A DNA stretch of 36,697 bases from Acidimicrobiales bacterium (GCA_036511155.1 DATCCR010000245.1:1-36697); one strand, 5' to 3'; positions 8,284 through 36,697 are shown, counted from the stretch's first letter. Program-made: numbers and translations. Notes: a model not told the origin generated them from the sequence alone.

Positions 8284-9963
<1,680 letters not shown>

Positions 9964-11069: not shown

Positions 11070-11072
11070 GAG

Positions 11073-16741: not shown

Positions 16742-16851
16742 CGCATCTCTCTTCCTATGGCCGCGTACAGCACTTCGGGATGGACGATGAGCCGAACACA
16801 AGTCGTGAGCTGGCCCGATCGCCGGGGGGCTGATCCTCATCGTCACCGCCC

Positions 16852-17598
16852 TTGAATCAAAGCTATGGAAGAGCCGGTCCTCGGGCTAGTACAAGATCTG
16901 GACTGATAGCGTGCGCAGGCGTGGGGTCCGGGTACTACCAGTTCTGCCCCGTCGCCAAGGCGATGGAGCTGCTCGACGAGCGTTGGACCCTGCTCATCGT
17001 CCGCGAGCTGGTGAGCGGGAGCCAGCAATTCAACGAGCTGCGCCGCGGTCTGCCCCGAATGTCGCCGTCATTGCTGTCCAAACGGCTGCAACAGCTGGCA
17101 CGGGCTGGGATCATCGAGAGGAGGGTCGACGGGAGCGACGTACGGTACGTCCTGACGCCCGCGGGTCAGGAGCTCCAACCGGTGGTCGAGGCGCTGGGCA
17201 TTTGGGGTGTCCGTTGGATCGGCGAACTCGGCGACGAGGACCTCGATCCGAAACTCCTCTTGTGGGACATGCACCGCAACATCGACCACGCCGCCGTCCC
17301 CGGTGGGCGGACCGTGGTCCGGTTCAATTTCCCGGACGCACCAGCAAAGGCCCGTGATTGGTGGATGGTGATTACCGTCGATGACGCCGACGTGTGCGAT
17401 GTGGACCCCGGTCACCCAGTGGCCGTGACAGTGACCGCCAGCCTGCGCCGCATGGTCGAGGTCTGGCGCGGCGACTCAGAGTGGTCCGACGCCCTTCGTT
17501 CCGGCGAAATCGAAGTGAGCGGTCCCGATGCACTTCGCCGGGCCCTGCCGCTGTGGTTCACGCTCTCGGTGTTCGCTTCAGTCCCTCGGCCTGTGTAG
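16852..17598 (+). CDS. HxlR-family winged-helix transcriptional regulator with C-terminal extension
   Basis: This is ORF 16852..17598. CPVAKAMELLDERWTLLIVRELVSGSQQFNELRRGLPRMSPSLLSKRLQQLARAGIIERR is the HxlR signature. GTG 16921 is an alternative start. The gene is divergent from the methyltransferase. Confidence 0.8.
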   Translation: MNQSYGRAGPRASTRSGLIACAGVGSGYYQFCPVAKAMELLDERWTLLIVRELVSGSQQFNELRRGLPRMSPSLLSKRLQQLARAGIIERRVDGSDVRYVLTPAGQELQPVVEALGIWGVRWIGELGDEDLDPKLLLWDMHRNIDHAAVPGGRTVVRFNFPDAPAKARDWWMVITVDDADVCDVDPGHPVAVTVTASLRRMVEVWRGDSEWSDALRSGEIEVSGPDALRRALPLWFTLSVFASVPRPV

Positions 17599-17697
17599 TT
17601 GCTCAACGGCGCCGATCGCCCAGCCCAAGAGCTCTCCGCTCTGAGATCCTTTCGCCGCAGTTCGCGATACTCATTACCAAACACGGATGGCGCTTGA

Positions 17698-18026
17698 GTG
17701 CTCCGTAGGATGACGAGCTCAGCCATCGAAGGACGAACAAGGGGTCAACACCAATCAGCCCCAGGACGAGACACTCCCCGATGCGCTGGGTATCCCACCC
17801 GCACCGTTCAGCGACACCCCATAAGGGGTCTCATTAGCAACTTGCGGGCAATCTGGCCCTGCTCTGCACCCACCACCACCGGCTCAAGACCTACGAGGGA
17901 TGGATCCTGGAACGGCACGGGCCGAGCGACGAGGATCCCCAGTGGTCCTTCACGCCCCAGCCGGTCTTCGGCCAGGAGCCCGACCTCGGCCACGACCGAC
18001 CGCCCGAGACCACACCCCGGGAGTGA
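17698..18026 (+). pseudogene. degraded 3' fragment of a second DUF222-HNH gene
   Basis: My translation of 17850-18026 is NLALLCTHHHRLKTYEGWILERHGPSDEDPQWSFTPQPVFGQEPD...*, which parallels the end of the intact gene. Upstream, in a different frame, AIEGRT....RDTPRC.GYP parallels ISHFGRT....RDRCCVVPGC. At least one frameshift and an in-frame TAG are present. Confidence 0.6.
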
Positions 18027-18214
18027 GGGGGCTAGAGCTCGCCGGTCTCTTCGAGCCGAGTCCCGCCTCCGCGAACCGGAGATCACGGCATCAAGGCTAC
18101 CGAGGTGTTCGCCAAGGGACCTGAGCCTCTGATCAACGACGGAGTTCTTCGTATCTCGGCTGAGCCGATACTGGACGCGCTGCACCTCATCGGGAGGTGA
18201 CAAGGGGTCAGTAT

Positions 18215-18634
18215 TCAGCCGGTGGCGACACCGCCCTTGTTCTTCCTGAAGAGCTGGCTGACCCACTGACGAGTTGTCCCAAATGCCTCTGCTACCTCGT
18301 TGGCAGTCCGGCCCTCCTCTTTGAGAGCGATCACAGCGGACCGTCTAACCTCTCGCCTGCTCTCCTCGTAGGCCTCCAGCAATGTGCTTATCCGCCTGCT
18401 CCAGGCCGCTGAGTCATGTCGGGCGAACGCCTCGGTCACCGTCATGCCGGCCTCTTGGTCCGCTATCGCAGCCGCGGTCTCTTCGTTGAAGCCCAGGATG
18501 CCTTCGATGAGCCGTATCCCCGCCTCGACGTGACTGATCTCGTCCTCGACAAATTGCTCTTTTGCCGCCATTGGGGGGATTTTACTCAGTGGATCGCCCT
18601 TTGCCGAAACCGCATCGGTGGCCATCATGGTCAT
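18215..18634 (-). CDS. helix-turn-helix protein (sigma-70 region-4-like / HTH_23-like C-terminus)
   Basis: This lies in ORF 18215..18772. I place the start at ATG 18634 (MTMMATDAV...). The C-terminal HTH is ALKEEGRTANEVAEAFGTTRQWVSQLFRK. Confidence 0.55.
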   Translation of the reverse strand: MTMMATDAVSAKGDPLSKIPPMAAKEQFVEDEISHVEAGIRLIEGILGFNEETAAAIADQEAGMTVTEAFARHDSAAWSRRISTLLEAYEESRREVRRSAVIALKEEGRTANEVAEAFGTTRQWVSQLFRKNKGGVATG

Positions 18635-18770
18635 CCTGGCCCTGCCTAGTTCCTCAGTCGCCGGTGCCCCCGCTTGCTCCAGTAGTACCTCGTGACCATC
18701 CGCAGCGCGACTTGCCCGGATGTGCAGGTGTGGGGGGCCGCAGGTGGGGTCTGATTGGCGATTTGCGAGC

Positions 18771-18923
18771 AACCTCGCCCTCTTGTGCCATCACCATCAC
18801 TACCTGAAGACGTACGAAGGGTGGACCCTCGAGCGGATGGGCACCGAGGCCGACGGAACGCCCGAGTGGTCGTTCACCCCGATGCCGCCCTTCGGGCAGG
18901 AGCCGGACCCACCCGGGGGCTGA
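18771..18923 (+). pseudogene. orphan 3' fragment of the DUF222-HNH gene (direct repeat copy 2)
   Basis: It encodes NLALLCHHHHYLKTYEGWTLERMGTEADGTPEWSFTPMPPFGQEPDPPGG*, identical at the protein level to the last 50 residues of the 13679..15220 product. Similarity stops abruptly upstream of 18771. Confidence 0.85.
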
Positions 18924-19351
18924 TCCCGGGTGACCGCCGGGCACCGTGCATTTCGACAGTTCGTCCTCGACGGGACTGCGCGTGCGGTGGGCCGGTCGGT
19001 GTTCGACCCCGGAGCGAGTATGGTGAATACACGCATCGAGGGCTGTTTGCGCGATGCCGAACGAATCGACTGCTGGCAGTCAACGCTGACTGCGGCGTCG
19101 ATCGTGTCGTTGCTTGCGTCTTCGGACCGGCAGCTGGTGCGACAGGAACCCCTGTGAACTCTCCGAGGTTCTGCGCCACTGACTGCGGTCGAGCGCCGAT
19201 GCCGACACGTTCACCACTCGGCGCGTTCAGGAGCCACCCGTACTGCCGGCGTCCCATCGACGCCTAGGAACGGGCGACCGGGGATCGTTGGGCCGCATCT
19301 GGTCCTACCCGTCCACAGGACGAGTCGAACTCAACAACAAGGAACACACAG

Positions 19352-19549
19352 ATGAATCACCACATGGAAATCACACGCGCGATCGAGCGGAGCCGCGCAC
19401 GGACGGAGCAGGCAGAACGCCAGCTCCGGAAGCTTCGCGGCGAACCACTCGCTGCACCGCTCGCCGAACTGGACAGCCTGCTCGTCTACGAGCTGGGCCT
19501 GGAAGCACGCCTCTCCGAGATCCTCGACCGGACCGCAGTCCTGCGGTAG
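19352..19549 (+). CDS. small hypothetical coiled-coil protein
   Basis: ORF 19352..19549 has AAGGAA 7 nt upstream of its ATG. The product is charged and helical (ERSRARTEQAERQLRKLRGE...). Confidence 0.35.
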   Translation: MNHHMEITRAIERSRARTEQAERQLRKLRGEPLAAPLAELDSLLVYELGLEARLSEILDRTAVLR

Positions 19550-19740
19550 CTCCACCCAACGCACGGGGCCACCTGGCACTCCGGCGCCACCCCACCGTTG
19601 TCGGGAACCTCACGCCGCACGGTCGGATGCACGGTCGGATGCCGGGGCTGATCGGATCCGTTCCCGGTACCTCCGTGCATGGGCGTCGCCCGGCCCGCCT
19701 GCGGCTACGTTGAGACGGAAATCGACCGGGAGGAGTGCAG

Positions 19741-20412
19741 GTGCGGCAGGTCATCGGGGAGATACTGCCCTTCGCCGTCATCGTGATGGTGTCGCCGATC
19801 AACATCGTCGCCGCCATCCTGCTGCTCTTTTCGAAGCGGCCGCTCGCCAATGCGTCGTGCTATCTCGGCGGGTTCGTAGCCGGTGTGGCGGTCGTCGTGG
19901 GCGGGATCACCGCCCTGGCCGGCGCCATCCACCTGGACCCCGGTAGTGACCGGTCGAGAGGGGCGTCGGCGCTGCTGCTGGCTCTCGGCGTCTGGCTGAT
20001 CATCCGAGCCGTGCAGAAGTTCCGTGGCCGGGCGGGCCAGGACGGCAAACCCTCGCTGCCCGGATGGATGGACGGGATCGCCGGGTTCGGCCCCGGCCGG
20101 TCGCTCGCCGTCGGGGCCGGCATCGGTGCGGGCAACCCCAAGAACATCGCGGTCGCCATGGGTACCGCGGTGGCGGTGTCGTCCTCCGGGCTCCCGGTCG
20201 GGCAACAGGTGGTCGTCCTGGCAATCTACGTCGTGCTGGCATCGCTCGGTGTCGCCGCCCCGATCGTCGCCATGCTCGTCCTGGGCGACCGCTCCGACGC
20301 GGTCCTGGACGGTTGGAGGTCGTGGCTCACCCGGAACAACGCCGCCATGATGGCCGTCATCTACCTGTTCCTCGGCGTCTACCTGATCGGCCAGAACCTC
20401 GGGGGCGCCTGA
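19741..20412 (+). CDS. GAP family membrane protein (Sap/DUF2910-like)
   Basis: This lies in ORF 19735..20412. I prefer GTG 19741 as the start, with GGGAGGAG 5 nt upstream. It has six hydrophobic helices. ILPFAVIVMVSPINIVAAILLLFS and GAGNPKNIAVAMG resemble the family as I recall it. Confidence 0.65.
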   Translation: MRQVIGEILPFAVIVMVSPINIVAAILLLFSKRPLANASCYLGGFVAGVAVVVGGITALAGAIHLDPGSDRSRGASALLLALGVWLIIRAVQKFRGRAGQDGKPSLPGWMDGIAGFGPGRSLAVGAGIGAGNPKNIAVAMGTAVAVSSSGLPVGQQVVVLAIYVVLASLGVAAPIVAMLVLGDRSDAVLDGWRSWLTRNNAAMMAVIYLFLGVYLIGQNLGGA

Positions 20413-25262: not shown

Positions 25263-26873
25263 TCACGCCTCCAGCACCACCGGCCCTTCGCCCGACGCCC
25301 GCGGCCATCCCTGGGCCACGAAGTGGTCGGCCCACCGCCCCCGCCCGGTCGACCGCAACCGCTCCAGGTACCAGGGCACGTCGACCCGGCTGTGCCAGGG
25401 CCCGCCGCCGGTCAGCACCGTCCACAGCGGGTCGACCCCTGCCGGTGAACGGGCCAGGGCGTCACTGCCCCAGTCGGCCAGCAGGGCCAGGGCGTGCTCG
25501 ACCACATCGGGGCGGTCGGCCACCAGGTCGTGCTGCTCGTAGGGGTCGGCGACCACGTCGAACAGCTGCACCTCGGGGAAGCCGTGGAAGGCGTCGTGGT
25601 AGGTGCGGATGCAGATCCACCGGTCGAAGCGGACGGCGCGCTGGGCCGTCCACGCCCCGTGGGAGAGGACGAGGTGGTCCCGTCCCGTGGGCCGGCCGTC
25701 GAGGAGCTCAGCGGCGAACGACCGTCCATCCCACCGCTCCGGGACGCGTGCGCCGGCCAGCTCCAGCACGGTGGCCATGACGTCGATCTGGTAGTGGAAC
25801 CCGCTGTCGACCGAACCGGCCCCGGGCGAATCGGCTCCGGGTGGGCCGGTATCTACCGAGTCGGCACCGACTGGGCCGGCACCCGCCGAGCCGGCCGCGA
25901 CCGAATCGGCACCGACCGGGCCGGCGGCGGCGCCCCGCGGCTCGAGACCGGGCCACACCAGCACGAACGGCAGCCGGGTGGTGATCTGGTCGGCCGTCTG
26001 GTGGTCGCAGTAGATGCCGAGCTCGCCGAGGTTCTCGCCGTGGTCGGCCGAGACCATGACAGCCGTCTCGGAGGTGAGGCCGAGGTCGTCGACGACCCCG
26101 AGCAGACGGCCGATCTGGTGGTCGGCGTACCGCACCCCGGTGTCGTAGCCGTCGTAGACCCGGCGTACGTCGTCCATCGACGAGGCCTGGAGCGGTTGGC
26201 GTGGGTAGCGGTCCCACACGTCCCGGGGGCCGAAGCCGGCCAGCTCCTGGGCCGAGTGGGGTCCGGGGAGCGACCAGTGGGCGGCCCGGACCTCCTCGGT
26301 CAGCCACGCCGGGACCGGGTCGTCGTCGAACGGATCGCCGAACGAGGCCGGCGTGCGGTAGGGCGTGTGGGGGTCCCACAGGTGGACGTGGAGGAACCAG
26401 TCCTCGCCGGGCCCGTTGCGGAGGAGCCAGTCCTCGGCGGCGGCGGCCACCTGGTCGGCCGTCTCGAGGCCCCGGGTGCCGAGGTTGACGCACTCGTTGA
26501 ACCCGGCGTCGAAGTGGTACGCCGAGTGGCGCTCGGCGAAGGTGCTGATCGACGCCGTCCACATCCCGAGATCGCGCAGCGGGGCCATCCAGCTGTGCGC
26601 GGCGGCCTGGGTGCGGAAGCCACGGCGCGTGCCCTCGGGGAAGAGGTCGGTGGCCGGGCCCCCGTGGTTGACGGCTCCGTTGCGGATGCCGAACTGTCCG
26701 GTCGACAGGGCCGAGCGCGACGGCAGGCACGGGGTGTCCGAGGCGTGCACGTTGTCGAACCGCACGCCGCGGGCGGCCAGTCCGTCGATGACCGGGCTGG
26801 TGGGCCGGCCGTACCCGTAGCAGCCCAGGTGGTCGGGCCGCAGGGTGTCGACGTCGATGTAGATCAGGCGCAT
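25263..26873 (-). CDS. sulfatase-fold (alkaline phosphatase superfamily) protein with canonical Cys-type CxPxR motif and no signal peptide
   Basis: This lies in ORF 25263..26954, with the start at ATG 26873 (MRLIYIDVDTLRPDHLGCYGY). The formylglycine motif is DTPCLPSRSALSTGQ (Cys codon 26727-26729). Metal and active-site blocks are HVHLWDPHTPY and SADHGENLGE. A Gly/Ala/Pro/Asp/Ser repeat insertion is encoded at about 25800-25935. Confidence 0.85.
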   Translation of the reverse strand: MRLIYIDVDTLRPDHLGCYGYGRPTSPVIDGLAARGVRFDNVHASDTPCLPSRSALSTGQFGIRNGAVNHGGPATDLFPEGTRRGFRTQAAAHSWMAPLRDLGMWTASISTFAERHSAYHFDAGFNECVNLGTRGLETADQVAAAAEDWLLRNGPGEDWFLHVHLWDPHTPYRTPASFGDPFDDDPVPAWLTEEVRAAHWSLPGPHSAQELAGFGPRDVWDRYPRQPLQASSMDDVRRVYDGYDTGVRYADHQIGRLLGVVDDLGLTSETAVMVSADHGENLGELGIYCDHQTADQITTRLPFVLVWPGLEPRGAAAGPVGADSVAAGSAGAGPVGADSVDTGPPGADSPGAGSVDSGFHYQIDVMATVLELAGARVPERWDGRSFAAELLDGRPTGRDHLVLSHGAWTAQRAVRFDRWICIRTYHDAFHGFPEVQLFDVVADPYEQHDLVADRPDVVEHALALLADWGSDALARSPAGVDPLWTVLTGGGPWHSRVDVPWYLERLRSTGRGRWADHFVAQGWPRASGEGPVVLEA

Positions 26874-27003: not shown

Positions 27004-28950
27004 TCAGTGGATGACCGCCTGGGTGATGACCGCCGGCCGGGTGCCGTGGATCCCGACGGGACGGCCCGGCATCGACAGCCACGACTCGGTGGCGAAGACC
27101 ATCAGGAAGAGGTGCCAGACGGGCCAGAGGAAGACCCAGCCGATGTGGCGTCCCTGGTGGAAGCCGAGGGTGAGTACGGCCTGGAGGGCCATGAAGACGA
27201 TTTCGGCGATGACGTAGCCGCCCAGGAAGATGAGGATCACGTCCCGCTGCGTCCCCTCGAACATGGCGGTCAGCAGGAGGTAGAGCGGCAGCAGCAGGCG
27301 GGCCGGCGCGAACGTGCACTTCACGAACTGCTGGGTCTGGTTGAACCACACCTTGGGGGTGGCCACCCCGGCCCGGTAGGGGCCGTGGCGCGACTGGTTG
27401 TGGTGGACGGCCCGGCCCCAGCGCACCCGCTGCTCGCGGATCTCGGCGTAGGTCGGGGGCACGTCCTCGTAGACGACGATCTTGGTGTCCATCCACGTGC
27501 GGTAGCCGAGGCGGCTGGCCCGCAGGGTGAAGTCGCCGTCCTCGCCGTTCATCCCGACGGTGAACCCGCCGAGTCCGACCGCCACGTCGCGCCGGAACGC
27601 GGTGAACACGCCGGGCACCACGTTGACCCCGTCCACCGTCTGGATGGTCCGGTGGTTGAGGCCGAACTGCTTGAGCTCCTCGAACAGCCGCAGGTGCGGG
27701 AAGACCGAGCGGTGACCGGCCCGGGGGAAGCACATGGGCTCGACCAGGCCGATCTGGGGGTCCTCGAACCAGCGGGGCGTGTAGTACAGCGACCACTCGC
27801 CGACGATGGTGTCGGCGTCGATGCGCACCACGATGTCGGTGGCCGTGAGGGCGAGGGCGGCGTTGAGCGACTCGGACTTCCCGCCGTGGCGCCCGTCGTG
27901 GACCTCGCCGGTGGCGTGGGCGAAGGCGGCCATGGTGGCCAGGGCCAGATCCCTGGTGCCGTCGGACGACCCGTCGTTCATGACGATCACCCGCACCGGT
28001 CCGCCGTAGCGCCCGGCGGCCACGTCGATGGCGGTCAGGGTCGCCTCGATGACCTCCTCCTCGTTGTAGGCGGGGATGATCACGTCGATCGGCGGACGGT
28101 CGTCCGTGACCGGCGGGTCGGGACGGACGGTGAACCCGTTGACGATGGCCAGCAGCATCGTTCGGACCACGAACGTGCCGGCGGCGAAGGGAACCGGCAG
28201 CACGAGAGCCAGGGCCGGCCGGAACGCCGGGTCCGCCAGGTGGAAGATCCACAGCAGCCCGGCCATGCAGATGGCCATGGAGGCCACCGTCACGCCGAGC
28301 AGCGTCGCCGCGTCGGAGAACCGCGGCCGCTTGGCGAAGGGCACCCTGCTCGGCATGGGCAGGGCGTAGTTGAGGTACTGCATGCGGGTCATGGCCAGGA
28401 TGGCCACGCCCACCGCCACGAAGTTGCCGAGCAGGGTGGTCGGGGCGACCGGCACCCCGATGAGGACCTCGACCACCACCAGGGTCGCATCCATGAAGGC
28501 CATCACGAACAGGTAGATGAGGGCCTGGAAGGCGACCAGACCCTTGCGCCAGATGTTGCCCCGGCCGAGCACGGCCAGGCAGACGATGGTGGCGACGGTC
28601 AGGAAGCGCAGGCCCAGGGTGAAGCCGGCCAGGTAGCCGCTGACCTCGGCCGGCGACCGCACCACCGAGCTGCAGACGCGGGTCACCAGATCCGCGTACA
28701 TCTGGTCGGGACTCCAACTCCCCCGGAGCGAGTGGTAGGCGACCATCAGGGTGAGGAACAGGAGGCCGAAGGCCGGTACCAGCCAGTACGACGGCAGCTT
28801 GGGTTTCGGCAGCAGCACCAGTGCCATGCCGTCGCCCTGGTCGTCGGGGTAGCGCATGACGAGCGGGTAGGCCAGGAAGGCCAGCAGCACCGCGTCGGTG
28901 CCGAGCAGCAGCGCCAGCGGCTGGATCCCGGTGAGGAGGTCGAAGTGCAT
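27004..28950 (-). CDS. processive family-2 glycosyltransferase (polysaccharide synthase-like) with long multi-TM N-terminal extension
   Basis: This is ORF 27004..28950. The GT2 motifs are VIIPAYNEE, NDGSSDG, GKSESLN, IDADT, GEDGDFT and QRVRW. About 7 hydrophobic helices precede the catalytic domain and about 4 follow it. The overlapping ORFs 27007..28962 (+) and 26864..28717 (-) are shadow ORFs. Confidence 0.85.
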   Translation of the reverse strand: MHFDLLTGIQPLALLLGTDAVLLAFLAYPLVMRYPDDQGDGMALVLLPKPKLPSYWLVPAFGLLFLTLMVAYHSLRGSWSPDQMYADLVTRVCSSVVRSPAEVSGYLAGFTLGLRFLTVATIVCLAVLGRGNIWRKGLVAFQALIYLFVMAFMDATLVVVEVLIGVPVAPTTLLGNFVAVGVAILAMTRMQYLNYALPMPSRVPFAKRPRFSDAATLLGVTVASMAICMAGLLWIFHLADPAFRPALALVLPVPFAAGTFVVRTMLLAIVNGFTVRPDPPVTDDRPPIDVIIPAYNEEEVIEATLTAIDVAAGRYGGPVRVIVMNDGSSDGTRDLALATMAAFAHATGEVHDGRHGGKSESLNAALALTATDIVVRIDADTIVGEWSLYYTPRWFEDPQIGLVEPMCFPRAGHRSVFPHLRLFEELKQFGLNHRTIQTVDGVNVVPGVFTAFRRDVAVGLGGFTVGMNGEDGDFTLRASRLGYRTWMDTKIVVYEDVPPTYAEIREQRVRWGRAVHHNQSRHGPYRAGVATPKVWFNQTQQFVKCTFAPARLLLPLYLLLTAMFEGTQRDVILIFLGGYVIAEIVFMALQAVLTLGFHQGRHIGWVFLWPVWHLFLMVFATESWLSMPGRPVGIHGTRPAVITQAVIH

Positions 28951-29055
28951 CGGTGGTCGTAGCCCCTGTCGTGCTGTGCGTATCGGGTCATCCGGTGGCG
29001 CCGTGCGACGCCCGTGTCCCGGTGCCTCACCCTACCAAGAACATCACTCTCCGTG

Positions 29056-29071
29056 AAAGTGCGTGCACTTT
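29056..29071. promoter_or_regulatory. perfect 7-2-7 inverted repeat AAAGTGC-GT-GCACTTT in the divergent GT2 / sulfatase-MFP intergenic region (candidate operator)
   Basis: Read directly. The repeat is flanked by CGTGAA (29052-29057) and GCGTGAA (29072-29078). It sits in the locally AT-richer core of the 279-nt intergenic region. Confidence 0.3.
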
Positions 29072-29229
29072 GCGTGAACATTGAGTACGATTGCCGTGGG
29101 GCAGGGTGCGCAGTGGTCCGGACGGGGCTCGTCGGCGTTCCTGCAGAGCGGAAGGGCAGGAGCCATGGGACTGGAACGACGACGCCACGCGGGGATGACC
29201 GCACCGACGGGACAAGGGGGAGTCGCCCG

Positions 29230-32076
29230 GTGAATCTCCTCATCTGTTCCCTCGACACCCTCCGGGCCGACCATCTGAGCTGTCTGGGCAACGACCGCCA
29301 GCTGACGCCCAACCTCGACCGCATCGCCGCAGAAGGCGCCCTCTTCCGCCAGACCTACGCCACCGACATCCCGACCCAGCCGTCGCACACGGCCCTCTTC
29401 ACCGGCAAGTTCGGGATCAACTCCGGCATCGTCTCCCACTTCCACCCGGCGGCCTACCTGCCCGAGGAGACGCTGTGGCTCCCTTCCGAGCTGCGGCGCC
29501 AGGGCTACGTGACGGGGGCGGTGGACCATCTGTTCGCCATGAAGGACTGGTTCATCCGCGGCTACGACGACTACATGCCTCCTCCCGGACGGTCCCGCTC
29601 ACCGGGGTCGGTCATCAACGGCATCGGACTGCCGTGGATCAGCGAGCACAAGGAGCGGGACTTCTTCCTGTTCCTCCACTTCTGGGATGCCCACATCCCC
29701 TACGTGCCGCCGTCGCCGTTCAAGGAGCGCTACACGCACGGCACGTCGGGGCGGATCGACCCGGACATCACGGCCAAGCTCGAGGGGCGACCCAGCTACC
29801 CCCTGTTCAAGCAGAACCTGTACGACTTCCTCGACGCCATGCCGAACCTGGAGTACATCGCCGACCTGTACGACGCCGAGGTGGCCTACCTCGACTTCGA
29901 GATCGGGCGCATCTTCCAGCACCTCGAGCAGGAGGGCCTGCTGGACGACACCATGGTCGTCCTGTTCGGCGACCACGGCGAGAACATGACCGAGCACGAC
30001 GCCTGGTTCGACCACGCCGGCCTGTACGACTCGGTCACCCACGTGCCGCTGCTGATGTGGGCGCCGGGAAGGATCCCGGTGTGCGACACGGGCGCCATGG
30101 TCACCCTGACCGACGTGTTGCCGACCATCCTGGAGGCGCTCGGCATGCCCGAGCCCGAGGGGATCGACGGACGATCGCTCTTCCCCCTGATGCGGGGCGA
30201 GTCCACGACCCACCGCGACGCCGTCATGCTGAGCGAGGCCACCTGGCAGGCCGCCCGGGCCGTGCGCACCCCGGAGTGGAAGTACATCAAGTTCCTGCAG
30301 TCCACCATCTACGGCCGCGACGGCGTCGAGCTCTACGACCTGGCCAACGACCCCCACGAGCAGGTCAACGTGGCCGACCAGCACCCCGAGGTGGTGGACG
30401 AGCTGGGCAAGCGCCTCAACCACTGGGTCTCGGCCCAGCTCGGTGGCCGCCCCGACCCGATGCTCTCGGTGCTCGATGCCGGCCTGCCGGCAGTGGCCCG
30501 GCTCAACGACGTCATCGCCGGGCAGAGCAGACCCCGAAACGACGTGCCCACCCCGATCGATCCCGGCCCCGGACTCGTCCCGGCCGGGGTTGCGGCCGCA
30601 GTAGCCGGGGCTGTGGCCGCCTCCGACCACCTCGATCCCGGCAGCACCTCCGGCCCGTCCGGAGGCCCGGCGGTCGGGTCGGCGGACCCGGCCTCCGCTC
30701 CCCCCGTCGCCCTTCCCACCGCGCCCCCCGGGGACGGAGGGAAGTTCGCACCGGCCAACCCGCACAAGCGACGGCTGCGCGGGGCCCGTGGCGTCGTCGT
30801 CGGCGTCTTGGTGCTCGGCTCCGCCGTGCTCCTCGGCACGGCCGTCAACGGCCTGCTGCTGGCCAGCCCGCTGTCGGCCACCGGGGTGGTCCAGCCCACT
30901 CTGGACGCCCAGCTCAACATGCCCGGCACCGGTCCGATCATCTCGCTCCCGGTCCACGTGGGCGAGATGGTCCGCGCCGGCCAGGTGCTGGCCAGTCAGG
31001 ACACCAGCGCCCTCGACGCCCGGCTCGCCGCCGACCAGTCCAAGCTGGCGGCCGACCAGGCGACCCTGTCCGCTCAGCAGGCCGGCGGCCAACCGGCTCA
31101 GGTCCAGCAGCTCCAGGACCAGGTGGCGGCGGCCCAGACGGCGTGGTCGTCGGCCCAGCAGAGGATGGGGGGGACCCAGTCGACCACCGCCGCCGCCGTG
31201 TCCTCGGCCCAGGCCCAGGTGGCCACCGAGCAGGCGCTGCTGACGTCCGACCAGCAGACCTACCAGGACGACATCCCGGCCTGCACCTCGGCCACGCCCC
31301 CCTCCTACTGCGCGGCCGACCAACGCCAGGTGCAGGTCGACCAAGGCACGCTGACCGCTGACCGGAACACACTGGCCGAGGCCGTGGCCAACCAGCAGTC
31401 CCAGGCCACCGGGGCCCAGAACGCCGTCGACCAGGCTGCGGCCGCCGTCACCACCGCCCAGGCCGCCCTGGCCGCCGGAAGCGCCCCGGCCACTCCGGAG
31501 CAGATCGCCGCTACTCGTGCATCGATCCAGCAGGACCAGGCAGCCATCGCCGCCGACCAGGCCAAACTGGCCCAGGCCGTGGTGGTGGCCCCGTTCGACG
31601 GCGTGGTGTCGGCTGTCAACGGCTCCGTCGGCGAAGTGGTCTCGAGCCAGGGCGTCAAGCAGGCCTCGGCGTCGGCCGCGCTCAGCCAGGGCCAGACCAC
31701 CGGCATCCAGCTGTTCCCCCAGGGGCCGCAGTCGGGCTCGGGTGGACCGTCCCCGGCCTACGCCGCCCTCATCACCCTCGACTCGGTGCAGAACCAGATG
31801 GTCGTCCAGGTCCCCGAGACCTCCATCAACGACGTCCACATCGGACAGAAGGCCAGCGCCACGCTGCCGGCCGTGCCCGGGACCACCCTCGACGTCGAGG
31901 TCAGCCGGATCGAGCGCACCCCGGTCACCCAGAACGGCCAGACCTACTTCCGGGTCGACCTGGTGACCACGGCGAAAGGGCCCCACACCCTGGCCTACGA
32001 CCCGAACGACCCGTCGCTGACGTCGATCCCGACGCCGGGCAAGCTGGCCGGGTTCACCGTCGACGTGTCGTTCTGA
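29230..32076 (+). CDS. fusion protein: sulfatase-fold domain (Thr in nucleophile position) + single TM helix + HlyD/membrane-fusion-protein-type coiled-coil adaptor domain
   Basis: This lies in ORF 29014..32076, with the start at GTG 29230 (AAGGGGGAG about 10 nt upstream), giving (M)NLLICSLDTLRADHLSCLG. The N-terminal domain is paralogous to 25263..26873 (FGDHGENM, LHFWDAHIPY), but its nucleophile motif is DIPTQPSHTALFTG. A Pro/Ala linker follows, then KRRLRGARG and a TM helix (VVVGVLVLGSAVLLGTAVNGLLL). The MFP pattern comes next: GPIISLPVHVGEMVRAGQVLASQD, a long Q/A coiled coil, VVAPFDGVVSAVNG, and a C-terminal beta barrel. Confidence 0.8.
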   Translation: MNLLICSLDTLRADHLSCLGNDRQLTPNLDRIAAEGALFRQTYATDIPTQPSHTALFTGKFGINSGIVSHFHPAAYLPEETLWLPSELRRQGYVTGAVDHLFAMKDWFIRGYDDYMPPPGRSRSPGSVINGIGLPWISEHKERDFFLFLHFWDAHIPYVPPSPFKERYTHGTSGRIDPDITAKLEGRPSYPLFKQNLYDFLDAMPNLEYIADLYDAEVAYLDFEIGRIFQHLEQEGLLDDTMVVLFGDHGENMTEHDAWFDHAGLYDSVTHVPLLMWAPGRIPVCDTGAMVTLTDVLPTILEALGMPEPEGIDGRSLFPLMRGESTTHRDAVMLSEATWQAARAVRTPEWKYIKFLQSTIYGRDGVELYDLANDPHEQVNVADQHPEVVDELGKRLNHWVSAQLGGRPDPMLSVLDAGLPAVARLNDVIAGQSRPRNDVPTPIDPGPGLVPAGVAAAVAGAVAASDHLDPGSTSGPSGGPAVGSADPASAPPVALPTAPPGDGGKFAPANPHKRRLRGARGVVVGVLVLGSAVLLGTAVNGLLLASPLSATGVVQPTLDAQLNMPGTGPIISLPVHVGEMVRAGQVLASQDTSALDARLAADQSKLAADQATLSAQQAGGQPAQVQQLQDQVAAAQTAWSSAQQRMGGTQSTTAAAVSSAQAQVATEQALLTSDQQTYQDDIPACTSATPPSYCAADQRQVQVDQGTLTADRNTLAEAVANQQSQATGAQNAVDQAAAAVTTAQAALAAGSAPATPEQIAATRASIQQDQAAIAADQAKLAQAVVVAPFDGVVSAVNGSVGEVVSSQGVKQASASAALSQGQTTGIQLFPQGPQSGSGGPSPAYAALITLDSVQNQMVVQVPETSINDVHIGQKASATLPAVPGTTLDVEVSRIERTPVTQNGQTYFRVDLVTTAKGPHTLAYDPNDPSLTSIPTPGKLAGFTVDVSF

Positions 32077-32433
32077 GGCTCCCGGCGAGGCGGCCCCGGT
32101 CGGCGTGACGGGCAGGGGCGCGCCGGGGACGGGCCGGGCTCCGGGCCGACGGGCCGGCGGGCCGGCGGGCGGCCGGTGTCCTCCGAACCCTCGGCGCCCC
32201 CGACGACCACGCCCCCGGCCGGCACGGGGAGATGACCAGGCACCCGTGCTCCCGCTTCAGGTCCGGCGGAACCGGCGGGAACGCCCCGACCGCCGCTCGT
32301 GCGTCATCGGTCCGACCGGGACCCAGCGTCTGACCACGCGTGCCATGCCTCGAGGATGTGGCGGAAGCCGAGTCGGACCAGGAGAGGGTGACGGCCCCGG
32401 CTGGTACGGGGGATGGGTCGACAGGTGACTCGT

Positions 32434-32481
32434 CCATGTCGTCGACCGGCCATGTCGTCGACCGGCCATGTCGTCGACCGG
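32434..32481. repeat. 16-nt perfect tandem repeat x3 (CCATGTCGTCGACCGG)
   Basis: Read directly: units lie at 32434-32449, 32450-32465 and 32466-32481. Each contains a minus-strand ATG and a GTCGAC palindrome. Confidence 0.95.
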
Positions 32482-32483
32482 CG

Positions 32484-33035
32484 ACCATGGCCCGGGTGGC
32501 CCAGCGTCGGATCACCAGGGTCTCCCCTCCCCCGCCTCCGCCGACGGACTCGAGGCCCACCGGCCGGCGGAGATCGACGGCCGGATCGTCCGGCTCGATG
32601 CCGAGGCGGAGCCGTTCGTGGCCCGCCGCCCGGCCCCGGTCGGCCGACACCTCCAGCAGCCTCCGGCCGACGCCCCGGCCGGGCCGGGACGCCACGACCC
32701 CGACGGAGCGCCCGGGGACCTCCGGGGCGATGAAGGCGTAGCCGGGGTCGTCGGCCGTGGAGCATCGGATCCAAGTGGCGCCGATCGGCGATCCCGACTC
32801 GGCCACGACACCGACGTCGCCCGTCCGGGGCCAGCCGTCGACGTAGTGGGCGAACCGCGGTGGACCAGGATCTCGGCCCGGCCGGGGACGGGGCCACCCG
32901 ACCGCCACGCCGCCTCGCCGCCGCCTCGCCCAACAAGTCGGTCAGGAAGTCGGCGTCGGCGGAACGGGCCGTTCGCCACCGGATCCCGTCGCCCCGCCGG
33001 TGGTCCGCCGCGCCACCGCACCCACCTACCGCCAC
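32484..33035 (-). pseudogene. GNAT family N-acetyltransferase, reading frame broken (N-terminal about 40 codons in a different frame from the core)
   Basis: The core lies in the frame of ORF 32054..32908: FAHYVDGWPRTGDVGVVAE, GATWIR, VVASRPGRGVGRRLLEV (the acetyl-CoA motif A) and LRLGIEPDDPAV. The N-terminal strand/helix (IRWRTARSADADFLTDLLGEAAA) lies in the frame of ORF 32304..33035. The break coincides with the 11-nt tandem duplication at 32909-32930. The 3' limit is uncertain, because the core frame stays open to 32054. Confidence 0.5.
32909..32930. repeat. 11-nt perfect tandem duplication (GCCGCCTCGCC x2)
   Basis: Read directly: copies lie at 32909-32919 and 32920-32930. Confidence 0.95.
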
Positions 33036-33060
33036 CGCGGGTCCCCGAAGGACCGACCCG

Positions 33061-34227
33061 TCAGGAGCCGACGAACGGGAACCCGAAGTACGGCGTCTGG
33101 CCCATGGTGGTGAAGGCGCTCAAGCCGAGCTGACCCGGGGTGTCGGCCAGGGTCCAGTCGGAGGTGGACTTCGAGTCGTAGTAGAGGACGGCCTTGAGGC
33201 CGGGGAAGGTGACCGGAAGCACCGAGGTGAGCTGGGCCAGGTAGGTGCCCTGGTCGATGGTGGCGCCGGTCTCGCCCAGCATGAGGGGCTTGCCGTGGGT
33301 GATCCAGTTGGCGTAGAAGGGCAGGAACTGGGTGGTGAGCATGGCCGGGTCCTGCCTGCGGTCGTAGCCGTCCCAGCCGATCCAGTCCACGTAGGAGTCA
33401 CCCGGGTAGTAGGCCGAGCCGAACGTGGCCCCGTTGATCGAGGGGCACCACACGAAGGCCACGTTGGCCGCCCCCCGGTTCTGGAAGATGGTCCAGATGT
33501 GCTGCCAGGCCTGGATGTAGCCGGTCGCCCCGAGCGTGCCCAGGCAGCCGGCGGTGCGGGGCAGGCTGACGAGGTTCATCTCCCAGAACCAGCGCAGGAA
33601 CACCGGGCGGCCGTAGGCCTTGAGCGTGTCGGCGTAGCTGGTGATGAGCGTGTCCTGGCTGCCGTTGACGATCGAGGCGTCCGACGTGCAGGTCCAGTCG
33701 ACCACCGGGGTGGCGCCGGTCGCCGCCAGGGCGGCGAGGACAGAGGACTTTACCGGTGCGGACCAGGGCTGGTACACGTGGATCAGCCCGAGGGGTCGGC
33801 CGAGCGTCCCGTCGAAGTTGCCGATCTGGGCCAGCTCCTGGCGCACGTCGGCCTGGGCCTGGGACTCGGCCTCGTGGGGGGCCACGAAGGCGCCGAGGTA
33901 GGCGCTCGTCCTGGGCACGGCCGGCTTCGACAGGGTCGACGACGTGGCGGCGTGCGGGGGGGCCGGGCCACTGGCCGCGGTGGCCGACTGGGTGGCGGCC
34001 ACGGTGGCCAGCGTGCCCACGGTGACCAGACCGGCGACGAGCCCACGGGCCCGGCGCGAGGTCAGCACGCCGGTCCAACGGGCGGACCGGCGGGTGCCGG
34101 CCCCATGGGCGGTACGGCGGGCGGCGTGGGCCCGAGGGCGGCGGGCGGCTCCCGGGGCGGTCTCCATTGCGGTCCTCTCGTGCTGCTCATGCTCCGATGT
34201 CGGGTGCGGCGGCGTCTCGTGGTCCAT
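33061..34227 (-). CDS. secreted glycoside hydrolase family 26 (beta-mannanase-like)
   Basis: This lies in ORF 33061..34248. I prefer ATG 34227 as the start (MDHETPPHP...). An Arg-rich n-region and TM/signal segment are present (RRARGLVAGLVTVGTLATVAATQSATA). GH26-like blocks are YLGAFV, GRPLGLIHVYQPW, GRPVFLRWFWEMN (acid/base Glu) and KPLMLGETG (nucleophile Glu). Confidence 0.8.
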   Translation of the reverse strand: MDHETPPHPTSEHEQHERTAMETAPGAARRPRAHAARRTAHGAGTRRSARWTGVLTSRRARGLVAGLVTVGTLATVAATQSATAASGPAPPHAATSSTLSKPAVPRTSAYLGAFVAPHEAESQAQADVRQELAQIGNFDGTLGRPLGLIHVYQPWSAPVKSSVLAALAATGATPVVDWTCTSDASIVNGSQDTLITSYADTLKAYGRPVFLRWFWEMNLVSLPRTAGCLGTLGATGYIQAWQHIWTIFQNRGAANVAFVWCPSINGATFGSAYYPGDSYVDWIGWDGYDRRQDPAMLTTQFLPFYANWITHGKPLMLGETGATIDQGTYLAQLTSVLPVTFPGLKAVLYYDSKSTSDWTLADTPGQLGLSAFTTMGQTPYFGFPFVGS

Positions 34228-34263
34228 GTCACTCGTGGTCCATGTCACTCGTGGTCCATGTCA
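34216..34263 (-). repeat. 16-nt tandem repeat x3; on the minus strand each unit reads TGA-C-ATG-GAC-CAC-GAG (a stop-start cassette)
   Basis: Read directly. Plus-strand CAT occurs at 34225, 34241 and 34257. Plus-strand TCA occurs at 34229, 34245 and 34261. The period is exactly 16 nt. Confidence 0.95.
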
Positions 34264-36697
34264 GATGATCCCGGCGACCGGTGCGGGGGGCTGCGACACG
34301 GCACCGAGGAACGGGGCGTCGCCGAAGGCGAACACGCCGCCGTCGGCCCCGACCATCCAGTAGCCCTTGCCGTCGCCCGTCGGGGCCATGCCGACGATGG
34401 GCGCCCCGAGGTTCACGTAGCGGAGGCTTCCCTCGAATGCGGCATCGCCGAAGGGGAACACGGCGCCGTGGCGGGTGACCATCCAGTACCCGCCGCCGTC
34501 GCCGGTAGCCGCCAGGCCGACCACGGGGTCGAGCGTGATCCGTCCGCCCGTCGAGCCGTGGAAAGCGGCGTCGCCGTAGGCGAACACGCCACCGTCGGCG
34601 GCCACCAGCCAGTAGCCCCGGCCGTCCGACGGCGTGGCCATGCCGACGATGGGCTGGGACAGGGAGATGGCCCCGGTCGAGCCGTAGAAGCCGGCGTCGC
34701 CGAAGGCGAAGATGCCGCCGTCGGAGGCGACCTCCCAGTAGCCGAGACCGTCCGGGGTGGGCGCCAGGCCCACGATCGGCCGGTTGAGCTGCTTGCCCCC
34801 CATGGAGCCCTCGAAGCTGGCCGCGCCGAAGGCGAAGATGCCGCCGTCGGAGGCGACCATCCAGTAGCCGTCGTGCAGCGGCGTGTAGGCCGCCCCCACC
34901 ACCGGGGCGACCAGCGGCTTGCCGGTCATCGACCCGAAGAAGGCGTTGGTCGTCCCATGGGCCGACGGCACCGACCCCATCGGCCAGATCGAGCCGTCAG
35001 CACCGAACACCGCGTACCCCGACGACGGGCCGACGAGCGCCAGGGCGGCCGGCGGGCCGGCCACGAACGTGTAGTTGGCGGCGTGGAGGGTGCCCGGGGT
35101 GCACGTGATGTCGTAGCTGCCCTGGAACGACGTGGCCGATGCGGTGGACGTGCAGGCGGCGGCGCCGGTGACGACGGACGCCCCGTCGGAATCGACGAAG
35201 CCGGTCAGGTGGTAGGTCAGAGCGGGCAGGGCCGAGCCCACGGTGCCGCTCTGCGGGTCGGGCACGACGGTCAGGACCGCCGGTGCCACGTCGAACGTCG
35301 TCGTGGCCGAGGCCGGGTAGTAGAAGAACGACCCGGCCTGGCTCGAGGTCACCGTGCACGGCCCGGCCCCGATCAGGAACAGTCGGACCAGCGCGCCGGT
35401 GCACGAACCCTGGGCGGCGTTGGTCACGCCGAGGCCGGAGTCGACCGTCGGGGCGATGTTGACCGACTGGTCGCCGTAGGTGACCGGCGGCAGGCTCGGG
35501 TAGGTGATCGACTGCTGGGCCCGGGTCACCAGGAAGGCGGCCGAGCCGTCCGGACCCGAGAACAGCCCGGTGGCCAGCGTGCCCGGCGCCAAGGTGGTCA
35601 TGGCCGCCGGGGCCGCGGCGTTGACGCCGGGGGTGCCGTCGCCCAGCTGGCCGAAGTAGTCGCCGCCCCACATCCACGGCACGCCGTTGGAGGTCAGCGC
35701 GTACGACGCCGTCTGCCCGGCCGAGATCTGTACGAAGGTGGTGGTCGGCGGCAGGCCGAGGGGCTGGACGGGCACACTGCTGTCGACGGGCAGGGTGGCC
35801 ACCAGGGCCGACGACAGCTGGCCGAAGACGTCCGACCCCCAGGCGAAGACGAGGCCCGAGGTGGTCAGGGCCAGACTGTGGGACCCGCCGGCGGCGACCG
35901 ACGCCACCGGGGCCCCGGCCGGCATCGAGACCTGCTGCGGGGTGGCGGCGTCGGCGGTGGTGCCGGTACCGAGCTGACCCGAGGCGTCGAACCCCCAGGA
36001 GTAGACGCTGCCGTCGGCGGCCACGGCCAGGCTGTGGGCGGTGCCGGCGGCCAGAGCGGAGAAGGTGACCCCGGCGGGCGCGGCGACGGGGGTCGGGGTC
36101 GTGCGGCTCGTGGTCGTGCCGTCTCCGAGTTGGCCGCGGGTGTTCGCTCCCCAGGCGTAGACCTGGCCGGTCGAGGTGAGGGCCAGGCTGTGATCGCCGC
36201 CGGCCGCTATGGCCGTGAAGGTCACGCCGGCGGGCGCGGTGACGGGAGTGGGCACGTCCACCGGGATGGTCGTGCCGTTCCCGAGCTGGCCGAACAGGTC
36301 GGCACCCCAGGCGTAGACCTGGCCGGTCGAGGTCAGGGCCAGGGCGTGGGCGCCGCCGGCCGCCACCGCGGTGACCACGACGGGTGGACCTCCCGATGGC
36401 GTCGCCACGTCGACCGGCACCGGCGCCGTCGACCCCACCTTCGCCCCGTCACCCAGCTGGCCGAGCGAGCCCGCGCCCCACGAGTACACCCGGCCCGACG
36501 TGGTGAGCCCGACGCTGAACGCGCCCCCGGTGGCCATCGTCGCGAAGCTCTGGCCGACGGGCGCCGTCACCTGGACGGGGAGGGTCACCCCGGTGGCCGA
36601 CCCGCCACCCAGGACGCCGTTGCCCACCTGGCCGGCGTCGTTGCCACCCCATCCGTAGAGCGCCCGGGACGGCAGCGTGGGGGCGGCGAGCAGTCGG
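34261..36697 (-). CDS. large multi-domain protein (5' end outside the window): RCC1-type beta-propeller repeats + MBG-like Ig domains + six C-terminal GYW-type repeats
   Basis: ORF 34261..36627 continues without a stop to the window edge, where the upstream codons read ...SRALYGWGGNDAGQVGNG. At least 6 RCC1 repeats are present (GQVYAWGA..FGQLGNGT, HSLALTS). The MBG-like segment is LPALTYHLTGFVDSDGASVVTGAAACTSTAS..SFQGSYDITCTPGTLHAANYTF. The last part holds six repeats of about 41 aa with the consensus GYWxVxxDGGxFxFGDAxFxGSxxxxxLxxPIVGxAxTxDG. Confidence 0.85.
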   Translation of the reverse strand, partial: RLLAAPTLPSRALYGWGGNDAGQVGNGVLGGGSATGVTLPVQVTAPVGQSFATMATGGAFSVGLTTSGRVYSWGAGSLGQLGDGAKVGSTAPVPVDVATPSGGPPVVVTAVAAGGAHALALTSTGQVYAWGADLFGQLGNGTTIPVDVPTPVTAPAGVTFTAIAAGGDHSLALTSTGQVYAWGANTRGQLGDGTTTSRTTPTPVAAPAGVTFSALAAGTAHSLAVAADGSVYSWGFDASGQLGTGTTADAATPQQVSMPAGAPVASVAAGGSHSLALTTSGLVFAWGSDVFGQLSSALVATLPVDSSVPVQPLGLPPTTTFVQISAGQTASYALTSNGVPWMWGGDYFGQLGDGTPGVNAAAPAAMTTLAPGTLATGLFSGPDGSAAFLVTRAQQSITYPSLPPVTYGDQSVNIAPTVDSGLGVTNAAQGSCTGALVRLFLIGAGPCTVTSSQAGSFFYYPASATTTFDVAPAVLTVVPDPQSGTVGSALPALTYHLTGFVDSDGASVVTGAAACTSTASATSFQGSYDITCTPGTLHAANYTFVAGPPAALALVGPSSGYAVFGADGSIWPMGSVPSAHGTTNAFFGSMTGKPLVAPVVGAAYTPLHDGYWMVASDGGIFAFGAASFEGSMGGKQLNRPIVGLAPTPDGLGYWEVASDGGIFAFGDAGFYGSTGAISLSQPIVGMATPSDGRGYWLVAADGGVFAYGDAAFHGSTGGRITLDPVVGLAATGDGGGYWMVTRHGAVFPFGDAAFEGSLRYVNLGAPIVGMAPTGDGKGYWMVGADGGVFAFGDAPFLGAVSQPPAPVAGII

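Follow-up and report, generated by a model that had tools for sequence, protein, structure and literature searches.

We report a fusion gene in a 36,697-nt stretch of DNA from an Acidimicrobiales bacterium (GCA_036511155.1, DATCCR010000245.1:1-36697), referred to below as the window. The gene, at 29230-32076, encodes a 948-aa protein in which a predicted cytoplasmic sulfatase-fold domain is joined, through a disordered linker and a single transmembrane (TM) helix, to a predicted extracytoplasmic membrane fusion protein (MFP). Judged by sequence comparison, this sulfatase-fold/MFP architecture is conserved in one uncultured Acidimicrobiales lineage. We consider it reasonably probable that the fusion protein is the MFP partner of the divergently encoded family 2 glycosyltransferase (GT2) in a monoderm exopolysaccharide system, and that it tethers a cytoplasmic enzyme to the synthase. 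The pairing with GT2, a fusion/fission pattern among related loci, and the analogy with Alg44-Alg8, BgsB-BgsA-TolC and cyanobacterial cellulose systems all point to such a co-polymerase or export-adaptor role.

Layout and start of the fusion gene

The product falls into five parts: the sulfatase-fold domain, the linker, a basic flank, the TM helix and, at residues 545-948, the MFP. The corresponding features are as follows.

29230-32076, + strand: fusion gene, 948 aa, GTG start; Thr-type sulfatase-fold domain, linker, TM helix and MFP ectodomain
29230-30519, + strand: sulfatase-fold (alkaline-phosphatase-superfamily) domain, residues 1-430, predicted cytoplasmic (Pfam, PDB sequence search, Foldseek, conservation)
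30520-30762, + strand: Pro/Gly/Ala-rich disordered linker, residues 431-511 (predicted local distance difference test score, pLDDT, <35; 28% mean pairwise identity; zero invariant columns)
30763-30861, + strand: basic flank HKRRLRGARG (30763-30792) and single TM helix (30793-30861)
30862-32073, + strand: predicted extracytoplasmic MFP with lipoyl halves, alpha-hairpin and beta-barrel (NCBIfam, AlphaFold, Foldseek)

A preliminary description of this DNA had proposed an enzyme domain of ~470 aa. The domain is present, and its size has to be revised: the folded part takes up ~430 aa, and residues 431-511 are the disordered linker.

The stop-to-stop frame containing the fusion gene runs from 28963 to 32076. 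In the window, which has ~70% G+C, the in-frame G+C at third and second codon positions (GC3/GC2) was 0.70/0.67 over 28963-29229 vs. 0.92/0.47 from 29230 onward, which indicates that the coding signal starts at GTG 29230. The Shine-Dalgarno sequence AAGGGGGAG sits 7 nt 5' of this codon. Most related clusters with an intact N-terminus carry M/V-N-[LV]-I-x-C-S-L-D-T-L-R-A-D at the same residue, and ATG, GTG or TTG is found at aligned residue 1 in 67 of the 71 related loci. An in-frame stop lies less than 20 codons 5' of the start in 16 of these 71 loci, leaving no room for a signal peptide there. The upstream in-frame peptide of the window gene did not show a hydrophobic core (the best 12-residue stretch averages 1.54 on the Kyte-Doolittle scale). 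A start further upstream with a hidden signal peptide was therefore rejected on the GC3 jump, the N-termini of homologs and the nearby upstream stops, and the absence of an N-terminal signal peptide, with a start at 29230, was borne out as first described.

The sulfatase-fold domain and its likely chemistry

Pfam analysis of the fusion protein detected Sulfatase (PF00884, E 3e-40) and SGSH_C (E 9e-19). The closest solved proteins, by phmmer against the PDB, were S1 carbohydrate sulfatases and phosphonate monoester hydrolases (E 3e-32 to 1e-12), and the full-length model recovered only S1 sulfatases in Foldseek (E ~1e-17). HMMER alignment to 7oz8 and 6pt6 places Thr49 at the formylglycine Cys/Ser position and His53 at the Arg of CxPxR. 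The (C/S)xPxR motif thus reads Thr49-Gln-Pro-Ser-His53, as it does in nearly all homologs that keep this region (positions 1, 3 and 5 of TQPSH are constant; position 2 is Gln, Thr or Pro). Sulfate-binding and catalytic residues are also exchanged relative to 7oz8 (Lys to His100, His to Phe102, and the catalytic Lys to Asp261/His262). The metal ligands D9, D248 and H249 are retained, as is His155. D9 lies in DTLRAD (29254-29271), T49 and H53 in DIPTQPSHTALFTG (29365-29406), and D248 and H249 in GDHGENMTEHDAWFDH (29968-30015). D9, T49, D248 and H249 are invariant across the family, together with a further His/Asp cluster (H70, H72, H100, H150, D153, H155, H256, D257, D261 and H262).

Compared with S1 formylglycine sulfatases, the domain has the fold and the metal ligands and lacks both Cys/Ser-x-Pro-x-Arg and the Lys/His/Lys residues. 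As read from its sequence, the N-terminal domain is a sulfatase fold and not a sulfatase; the fold named in the preliminary description stands, and a sulfatase identity does not, given that Thr49 and His53 replace Cys and Arg. In LtaS, EptA/MCR-1 and NPP, metal ligands and nucleophile together read Asp/Glu-Thr-Asp-His. A Thr nucleophile with an Asp/Asp-His metal site, the hallmark of Thr-type phosphotransferases and phosphodiesterases, is found here in D9, T49, D248 and H249, and the resemblance to the LtaS/EptA/NPP set makes phosphoryl-type transfer the more likely activity of the enzyme domain, ahead of sulfate hydrolysis.

Residues 1-430 show 69% mean pairwise identity with 154 of 430 columns invariant, vs. 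46% and 32 of 403 columns for the MFP part. The far stronger constraint on the enzyme domain argues for an active enzyme. It bears on an alternative in which the N-terminal domain has no catalytic role and, as a pseudo-enzyme, senses a ligand or offers a scaffold and so regulates the synthase, much like the PilZ domain of Alg44. The loss of the sulfatase residues (Thr49 for Cys, His53 for Arg, His100 for Lys, Phe102 for His and Asp261/His262 for Lys) would suit such a role, and with Alg44 there is already an MFP-like co-polymerase that bears a regulatory domain on its cytoplasmic side. However, D9, T49, D248, H249 and the His/Asp cluster are invariant, the pattern is kept in distant exported relatives, and conservation of the N-terminal domain is far above that of the MFP part; we regard the pseudo-enzyme as unlikely.

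The nearest relatives outside the family are 26-37% identical, many of them with TPR repeats, and have the Thr, His and Asp-His pattern in common with it. By this relationship the Acidimicrobiales clade is a putative cytoplasmic offshoot of a normally exported, uncharacterised Thr-type subfamily.

The MFP part and membrane topology

The C-terminal part matched Pfam HlyD_3 marginally (E 2e-4). NCBIfam RND_mfp (E 8e-15) and type_I_hlyD (E 8e-10) matched residues 527-805, all under their curated cut-offs. An AlphaFold model of residues 511-948 (70 sequences; pLDDT 83.8) displays the TM helix, a split lipoyl domain, a hairpin with ~90-residue arms (residues 593-781, nt 31006-31572) and a beta-barrel. 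Foldseek against the PDB returned EmrA (E 3e-15), MacA, the EmrAB-TolC adaptor, Spr0693 (from a Gram-positive), MexA and AcrA, all with probability 1.00 (E 3e-15 to 5e-12). TM anchor, lipoyl domain, alpha-helical hairpin and beta-barrel, the components of an MFP, are all present, and the C-terminal part is by its modelled fold a true MFP, in keeping with the HlyD/MFP identity suggested earlier.

One strong hydrophobic helix was detected at residues 522-544 (nt 30793-30861, Kyte-Doolittle 2.37), and its coordinates and the KRRLRGARG flank agree with the preliminary description. Lys and Arg residues are more numerous before the helix than after it in 65 of 65 full-length homologs (mean 5.3 vs. 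0.02, counting 15 residues on each side). Orthologous stand-alone Thr-type proteins of 440-543 aa lack signal peptide and TM helix alike. In 59 of the 65 homologs there are exactly two Cys in the ectodomain; both are nearly invariant and sit at the tip of the hairpin (window protein: C685 and C694, 31282-31311). Such a pair fits a disulfide outside the cell, and the hairpin tip is probably disulfide-locked. Four independent lines (signal-peptide absence, charge bias, soluble orthologs and the Cys pair) agree in the predicted placement of the enzyme domain inside and the MFP outside the cell, the topology proposed at the outset.

Within the linker, residues 446-464 are rich in Ala, Gly and Val and reach a Kyte-Doolittle value of 1.59; in 7 of 65 homologs the corresponding segment scores 1.96-2.26. 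Taken with the signal peptides of the closest outside relatives, these values would favour a reversed or more complex topology in which the stretch forms a second TM helix or the sulfatase-fold domain is exported. We hold this to be very improbable. The stretch is low-complexity, non-conserved, absent or weak in most members and modelled as disorder, on which grounds a second TM helix was rejected, and the lack of a signal peptide in the family and in its soluble orthologs, the charge bias in 65 of 65 homologs, and the location of the Cys pair within the MFP part all run counter to it.

Four related loci (L026, L027, L028 and L058, ~10001-11580 in each) encode Thr-type proteins of 505-527 aa that end just past the charged flank and TM helix. 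These look like tail-anchored versions of the fusion without the MFP part.

Distribution of the fusion

Approximately 85 related protein clusters were found at 90% identity. Sixty-five of them are full length, the most distant having 45% identity over 100% of the query, and members with a named source come from Acidimicrobiales metagenome-assembled genomes (MAGs). A one-genome-per-species scan yielded 71 related loci, 28 fused and 43 unfused. They belong nearly all to Acidimicrobiales/Acidimicrobiaceae MAGs, with isolate names that point to palsa, bog, peat (SPRUCE) and a large survey series (MFD). An exact database look-up of the window protein gave no record, and a 98% identical relative was taken as a stand-in. 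It occurs on 24 metagenome contigs with equal gene order.

The fusion might in principle be an assembly or gene-calling artefact that joins neighbouring genes, and some loci in long-read MAGs are indeed fragmented by frameshift-like breaks (L061, L069 and L071). Yet unbroken open reading frames (ORFs) of 895-1015 aa are found in 24 fused loci from independent studies and assemblers, ~65 clusters are full length, and an independent gene caller reads the 98% identical relative as one 952-aa protein on its 24 contigs. An artefact is hardly credible.

No NCBIfam model scored above its own cut-off on the fusion protein, which leaves it without a curated family, and our literature searches for the sulfatase-HlyD combination found nothing. 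The JGI pipeline labels members of the group automatically as 'arylsulfatase A-like enzyme/multidrug efflux pump subunit AcrA'. The earlier remark that the architecture could not be placed in a described family holds with respect to curated families and to papers found; it needs qualification in that ~65 clusters, 28 species genomes and the JGI label attest to a populated group.

Gene neighbourhood: the GT2 synthase and its companions

Four genes on the minus strand flank the fusion gene.

27004-28950, - strand: processive membrane GT2 synthase, 648 aa, ~9 TM segments, divergent from the fusion gene
25263-26873, - strand: Cys-type sulfatase paralog with C49-L-P-S-R53, without signal peptide or TM helix, ~130 nt downstream of GT2
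33061-34248, - strand: hydrolase resembling glycoside hydrolase family 26 (GH26), with an N-terminal anchor or signal; closest solved relative Lic26A
34261-36627, - strand: RCC1-repeat beta-propeller protein with an MBG domain; frame open past 36627 to the window end

The window GT2 contains DAD (378), GED (469) and QRVRW (507), as in processive synthases; its best family matches were PgaC/IcaA, NodC and CelA, all under cut-off. In the Cys-type paralog the catalytic Lys is replaced by Asp, and a Pfam scan of window ORFs turned up no gene for a formylglycine-generating enzyme. The GH26-like protein matched the C. thermocellum lichenase Lic26A, a mixed-linkage beta-glucanase, at E 1e-17, closer than mannanases (1e-4 or worse), and both catalytic Glu align (WEMN/HEAN and GETG/AEFA). 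The RCC1-repeat protein has C-terminal GYW..DGG.F.FG repeats, and its counterpart in a close relative is 892 aa. Related loci encode multi-domain proteins with Ig-like and GH26 modules.

A GT2 gene lies within 10 kb in all 28 fused loci and is directly divergent, at 70% identity or above, in 24 of them. The Cys-type sulfatase accompanies the fusion in 26, GH26 in 24 and the RCC1-repeat protein in 23 of the 28. Among the 43 unfused loci, a GT2-like gene occurs in 34, a separate MFP-like gene in 28, GH26 in 31 and the Cys-type paralog in 30. The gene order in the unfused locus L036 is an Ig-like plus GH26 protein (1420 aa), MFP (483 aa), GT2 (659 aa), a GH26-like protein, a Thr-type protein (440 aa) and a Cys-type protein (480 aa). 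GT2 begins there 9 nt past the end of the MFP gene, and wherever an unfused locus was looked at closely, the MFP gene is 9-12 nt upstream of GT2 on the same strand. The stand-alone MFP of L036 has a ~60-residue cytoplasmic tail, one TM helix and the hairpin-tip Cys pair seen in the fusion. This fusion/fission (Rosetta-stone) pattern indicates that the MFP, GT2 and the two sulfatase-fold proteins form one system. A 938-aa ORF of L051, considered as a double-sulfatase fusion of Thr-type and Cys-type, was instead an out-of-frame Arg-rich read-through.

Alternatively, the MFP could belong to a conventional efflux or type I-like transporter of the ABC, MFS or RND kind whose gene lies in another part of the genome, and the GT2 adjacency would be incidental. 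Its best structural matches are drug-pump adaptors (EmrA, MacA, Spr0693 and MexA), and the sub-threshold model matches include RND_mfp, HlyD and DevB. Against this, no ABC, MFS or RND transporter gene was found beside it in the window or in the 28 fused loci, the sole ABC-type ORF of the window, at 7138-9963, being ~19 kb away; GT2 is present in 28 of 28 fused loci and divergent in 24, the MFP gene adjoins GT2 in the unfused loci just described, and the SQD1-MFP fusions described below lie beside the same GT2 family. The transporter explanation appears quite improbable.

SQD1-MFP sister fusions

A search with the MFP part alone against 1.84 billion representative proteins gave 363 clusters at E <=1e-10, most of which are stand-alone MFPs with 430-560 aa. 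P0194 (800 aa, L075 8001-10403), also among these clusters, starts with an SQD1-like short-chain dehydrogenase/reductase (SDR) domain, followed by a basic disordered linker, a TM helix and an MFP. The domain matches Arabidopsis SQD1 (1qrr) over its whole length at E 3e-115 and the NCBIfam UDP-sulfoquinovose synthase model at E 4e-104, under the equivalog cut-off. The GT2 neighbour of P0194 is 36% identical to the window GT2 over 604 aa, TM regions included. Three more such proteins were found: P0268, 84% identical to P0194; P0269 (L076 10001-12496), 67% identical, from an NCBI assembly and with neighbours as at P0194; and P0270 (945 aa, L077 1650-4487), located 3 nt upstream of a GT2 gene.

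The SQD1-MFP fusions resemble the window protein in overall design, MFP clade and GT2 family partner, and differ from it in having an SDR-fold cytoplasmic domain and a shorter hairpin without the Cys pair. No sulfatase-fold gene was seen in the SQD1-MFP loci. A 347-aa gene beside an SQD1-MFP fusion was considered as a GH26 candidate and proved not GH26-like. An SQD1-like gene lies within 10 kb in 1 of the 71 loci, L031, a sulfatase-MFP locus (3595-4881, - strand; NF041015, E 7e-95), where GT2, the Cys-type sulfatase and an unknown ORF of 384 aa precede it on the same strand.

The recurrence of SQD1-MFP fusions beside the same GT2 family suggests that this MFP clade tethers cytoplasmic sugar-precursor enzymes to the synthase. 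Sulfoquinovose occurs in sulfolipids and in Sulfolobus N-glycans (PMC4388408). Our literature search found no report of it as a building block of a bacterial exopolysaccharide. The SQD1-MFP loci are candidates for a possible sulfoquinovose-containing exopolysaccharide system.

Proposed role of the fusion protein

As the MFP partner of GT2, the fusion protein could work in the following way. The MFP part would probably oligomerise over the synthase exit outside the cell, and its lipoyl domain, hairpin and beta-barrel would guide the nascent chain through the wall; each hairpin arm of ~90 residues would span an estimated ~13 nm if fully helical. The flexible linker of ~80 residues would hold the metal-dependent Thr-type enzyme beside the cytoplasmic catalytic domain of GT2, where it would probably work with the soluble Cys-type paralog. 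The Thr-type domain may carry out phospho- or sulfo-ester transfer or hydrolysis on a sugar precursor, a primer or a by-product of polymerisation, which would tie precursor chemistry physically to synthesis and export. The lichenase type of the GH26 speaks for a beta-glucan-like polymer, and the SQD1-bearing sister systems suggest that it may be anionic and sulfo-bearing. Coupling of substrate modification to export, which the preliminary description had raised, is plausible, and is strengthened by the invariant GT2 pairing and the SQD1-like sister fusions.

Several points weigh against this reading. To our knowledge, a monoderm has no TolC-like outer partner to which the long hairpin could dock. 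In fused loci L017 and L018, GT2 is ~9 kb off and not adjacent. The nearest outside relatives of the N-terminal domain carry N-terminal signal peptides and would be exported, and therefore offer no grounds for assuming a cytoplasmic substrate. In the full-length AlphaFold model, pLDDT is 60.8 overall and <50 at residues 11-49, 154-199 and 250-271; we gave up reading the active-site geometry from it on account of the low pLDDT there. Phospho- and sulfo-ester chemistry, transfer and hydrolysis stand side by side as candidates. What the analysis establishes is the domain identities, the active-site residues, the topology as judged by sequence rules, the conserved synteny and the fusion/fission pattern; the GT2-MFP contact, the catalysis, the substrate and the polymer are ones that we infer.

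A broader proposal is that this MFP clade is a docking platform on which different cytoplasmic sugar-precursor enzymes, a Thr-type sulfatase-fold enzyme or a UDP-sulfoquinovose synthase, are swapped over one GT2 family, forming a new class of synthase-dependent monoderm secretion system for an anionic glycan of sulfo, sulfated or phosphorylated type. We put it forward tentatively, as a possibility with the odds against it. If it were true, the sister lineages might hold the first sulfoquinovose-containing bacterial exopolysaccharide, and the sulfatase-fold domain would perform cytoplasmic sulfo- or phospho-chemistry on the donor or the nascent chain.

In Gram-negatives, synthase-dependent exopolysaccharide systems have been described well, in Actinobacteria poorly. 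The system reported here suggests a way in which a GT2 synthase and an MFP conduit might be combined in a monoderm, and would, if the proposed role is correct, add a new principle, namely an enzyme on the cytoplasmic end of the adaptor. That a second, independent fusion (SQD1-like) exists on the same MFP/GT2 chassis argues that tethering is functional. The hosts are uncultured Acidimicrobiales of peat, permafrost-mire and soil metagenomes, and their extracellular polymers might play a part in the cycling of carbon and sulfur. The widespread Thr-type sulfatase-like subfamily is uncharacterised, and a tractable member with so rich a gene context could open it up.

Upstream ORF and the divergent intergenic region

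Two further features lie between GT2 and the fusion gene.

29165-29233, + strand: upstream ORF (uORF), 22 codons, ending in a TGA that shares bases with the fusion gene's GTG start (GTGA)
29040-29170, no strand assigned: conserved non-coding block in the GT2/fusion intergenic region, with CAC-N5-GTG, GTGCAC, CGTGA and a -10-like TACGAT (29086-29091)

The uORF starts at ATG 29165, is preceded by the conserved Shine-Dalgarno-like sequence GAAGGGCAGG and encodes the peptide MGLERRRHAGMTAPTGQGGVAR. Counting the window, 23 of 29 fused loci have a coupled uORF of 18-145 codons, always ending in an ATGA/GTGA overlap (the loci named are L001-L011, L013-L016, L019, L031-L035, L061 and L062). Its peptide sequence is not conserved among fused loci. 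The frame has been kept through many indels, which argues for translational coupling, and it differs from that of the fusion gene, so that the protein is not extended. The exceptions are L017, L018 and L022, which are divergent without the motif; L012, with an upstream ATG in the main frame; and L069 and L071, frameshift-like assemblies.

The intergenic block at 29040-29170 is probably an operator plus promoter, to judge from its motifs. Rfam gave no match in the window at gathering score, and at E <=5 the intergenic region yielded only one spurious miRNA match. RNAalifold on the block returned -1.24 kcal/mol and 3 pairs, and covariation was not found; a riboswitch or structured leader was rejected on the Rfam and RNAalifold results. 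A sigma-70 promoter scan of the intergenic region found nothing, such a scan being uninformative for Actinobacteria.

Other features of the window

Between the fusion gene and GH26, ~1 kb (32077-33060) with 76.5% G+C contains no confident gene and gave a weak GNAT match (E 0.003). This distance differs from one relative to another, and gene calling on the contig of the 98% identical relative places a 126-aa ORF in it. Two stretches, at ~2000-7000 and 15000-19500, have a G+C of 0.60-0.65 vs. 0.70-0.74 elsewhere and weaker GC3. They encode a glyoxalase-like gene, DUF6228, a trypsin-like protease, a methyltransferase and an HxlR regulator, and may be acquired islands. A DUF222 plus HNH endonuclease gene lies at 13544-15220, a GH114 glycoside hydrolase at 1620-2600 (+ strand), and a membrane protein of the Sap/SfLAP (sulfolipid-1-addressing protein) family at 19735-20412 (+ strand), the last being syntenic in the contig of the closest relative. 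A tRNA scan of the window found none.

Comparison with known systems

The closest parallel in layout is Alg44 of the Pseudomonas alginate system, in which a PilZ domain on the cytoplasmic side, a TM helix and a periplasmic part resembling an MFP are combined in a partner of the GT2 synthase Alg8 (PMC4436075, PMC8892547). The order of cytoplasmic domain, TM helix and MFP-like part, next to a processive GT2, is common to Alg44 and the fusion protein. Alg44 is also a described exception to the earlier generalisation that classical MFPs have only a short cytoplasmic tail, which does not hold in that form (PMC4436075, PMC8892547). The two proteins are likened here by architecture, and they differ in that Alg44 carries a PilZ domain of ~100 aa that binds c-di-GMP, and works in a diderm with AlgK, AlgX and AlgE, whereas the fusion protein carries a 430-aa metalloenzyme fold. 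No Pfam or NCBIfam match to a PilZ domain was found in the fusion protein.

In the mixed-linkage beta-glucan system of Sinorhizobium, BgsB, an HlyD-type MFP, partners the GT2 BgsA, with TolC (PMC13438883), and the cyanobacterial cellulose system combines an HlyD-like protein with a GT2 cellulose synthase and TolC (PMC8892547). Set beside the fusion protein by description, both have a true HlyD-type MFP next to a GT2 and need it for the polymer, and the lichenase-type GH26 of the window would fit a mixed-linkage glucan as in the BgsA/BgsB system. In contrast to the fusion protein, these MFPs are not described with a cytoplasmic enzyme domain, and they dock to TolC in diderms whereas the window host is a monoderm. 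A tblastn search of a plasmid collection for a link between the window GT2 and BgsA gave no Sinorhizobium record among the matches listed or the organisms counted.

The adaptors EmrA, MacA, HlyD and Spr0693 share their fold with the MFP part. Unlike them, the fusion protein has no pump gene nearby, has ~510 cytoplasmic residues vs. a short tail, and bears a Cys pair at the hairpin tip. A co-encoded ABC, MFS or RND transporter, usual for an MFP and joined in diderms by an outer-membrane factor, was found neither in the window cluster nor in the related loci, and GT2 takes the partner position.

With LtaS, EptA/MCR-1, BcsG and OpgB the enzyme domain shares the PF00884-type fold, a Thr nucleophile, the Asp/Glu-Asp-His site and a link to envelope glycopolymers. 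LtaS/EptA/BcsG-type enzymes carry a multi-TM domain at the N-terminus, act with a catalytic domain outside the cell and use lipid donors of the outer leaflet. The predicted topology of the fusion protein is the opposite, cytoplasmic and without an N-terminal TM region, and its matches to the LtaS/EptA group are partial and weak (E 6e-6 to 9e-5). We know of no alkaline-phosphatase-superfamily envelope enzyme that acts in the cytoplasm. S1 sulfatases and phosphonate monoester hydrolases are the closest in fold and sequence and share the SGSH_C subdomain; those that act on glycans are secreted. MFP-assisted, synthase-dependent exopolysaccharide systems are thus known in kind, and the cytoplasmic enzyme module on the adaptor is the unprecedented part.

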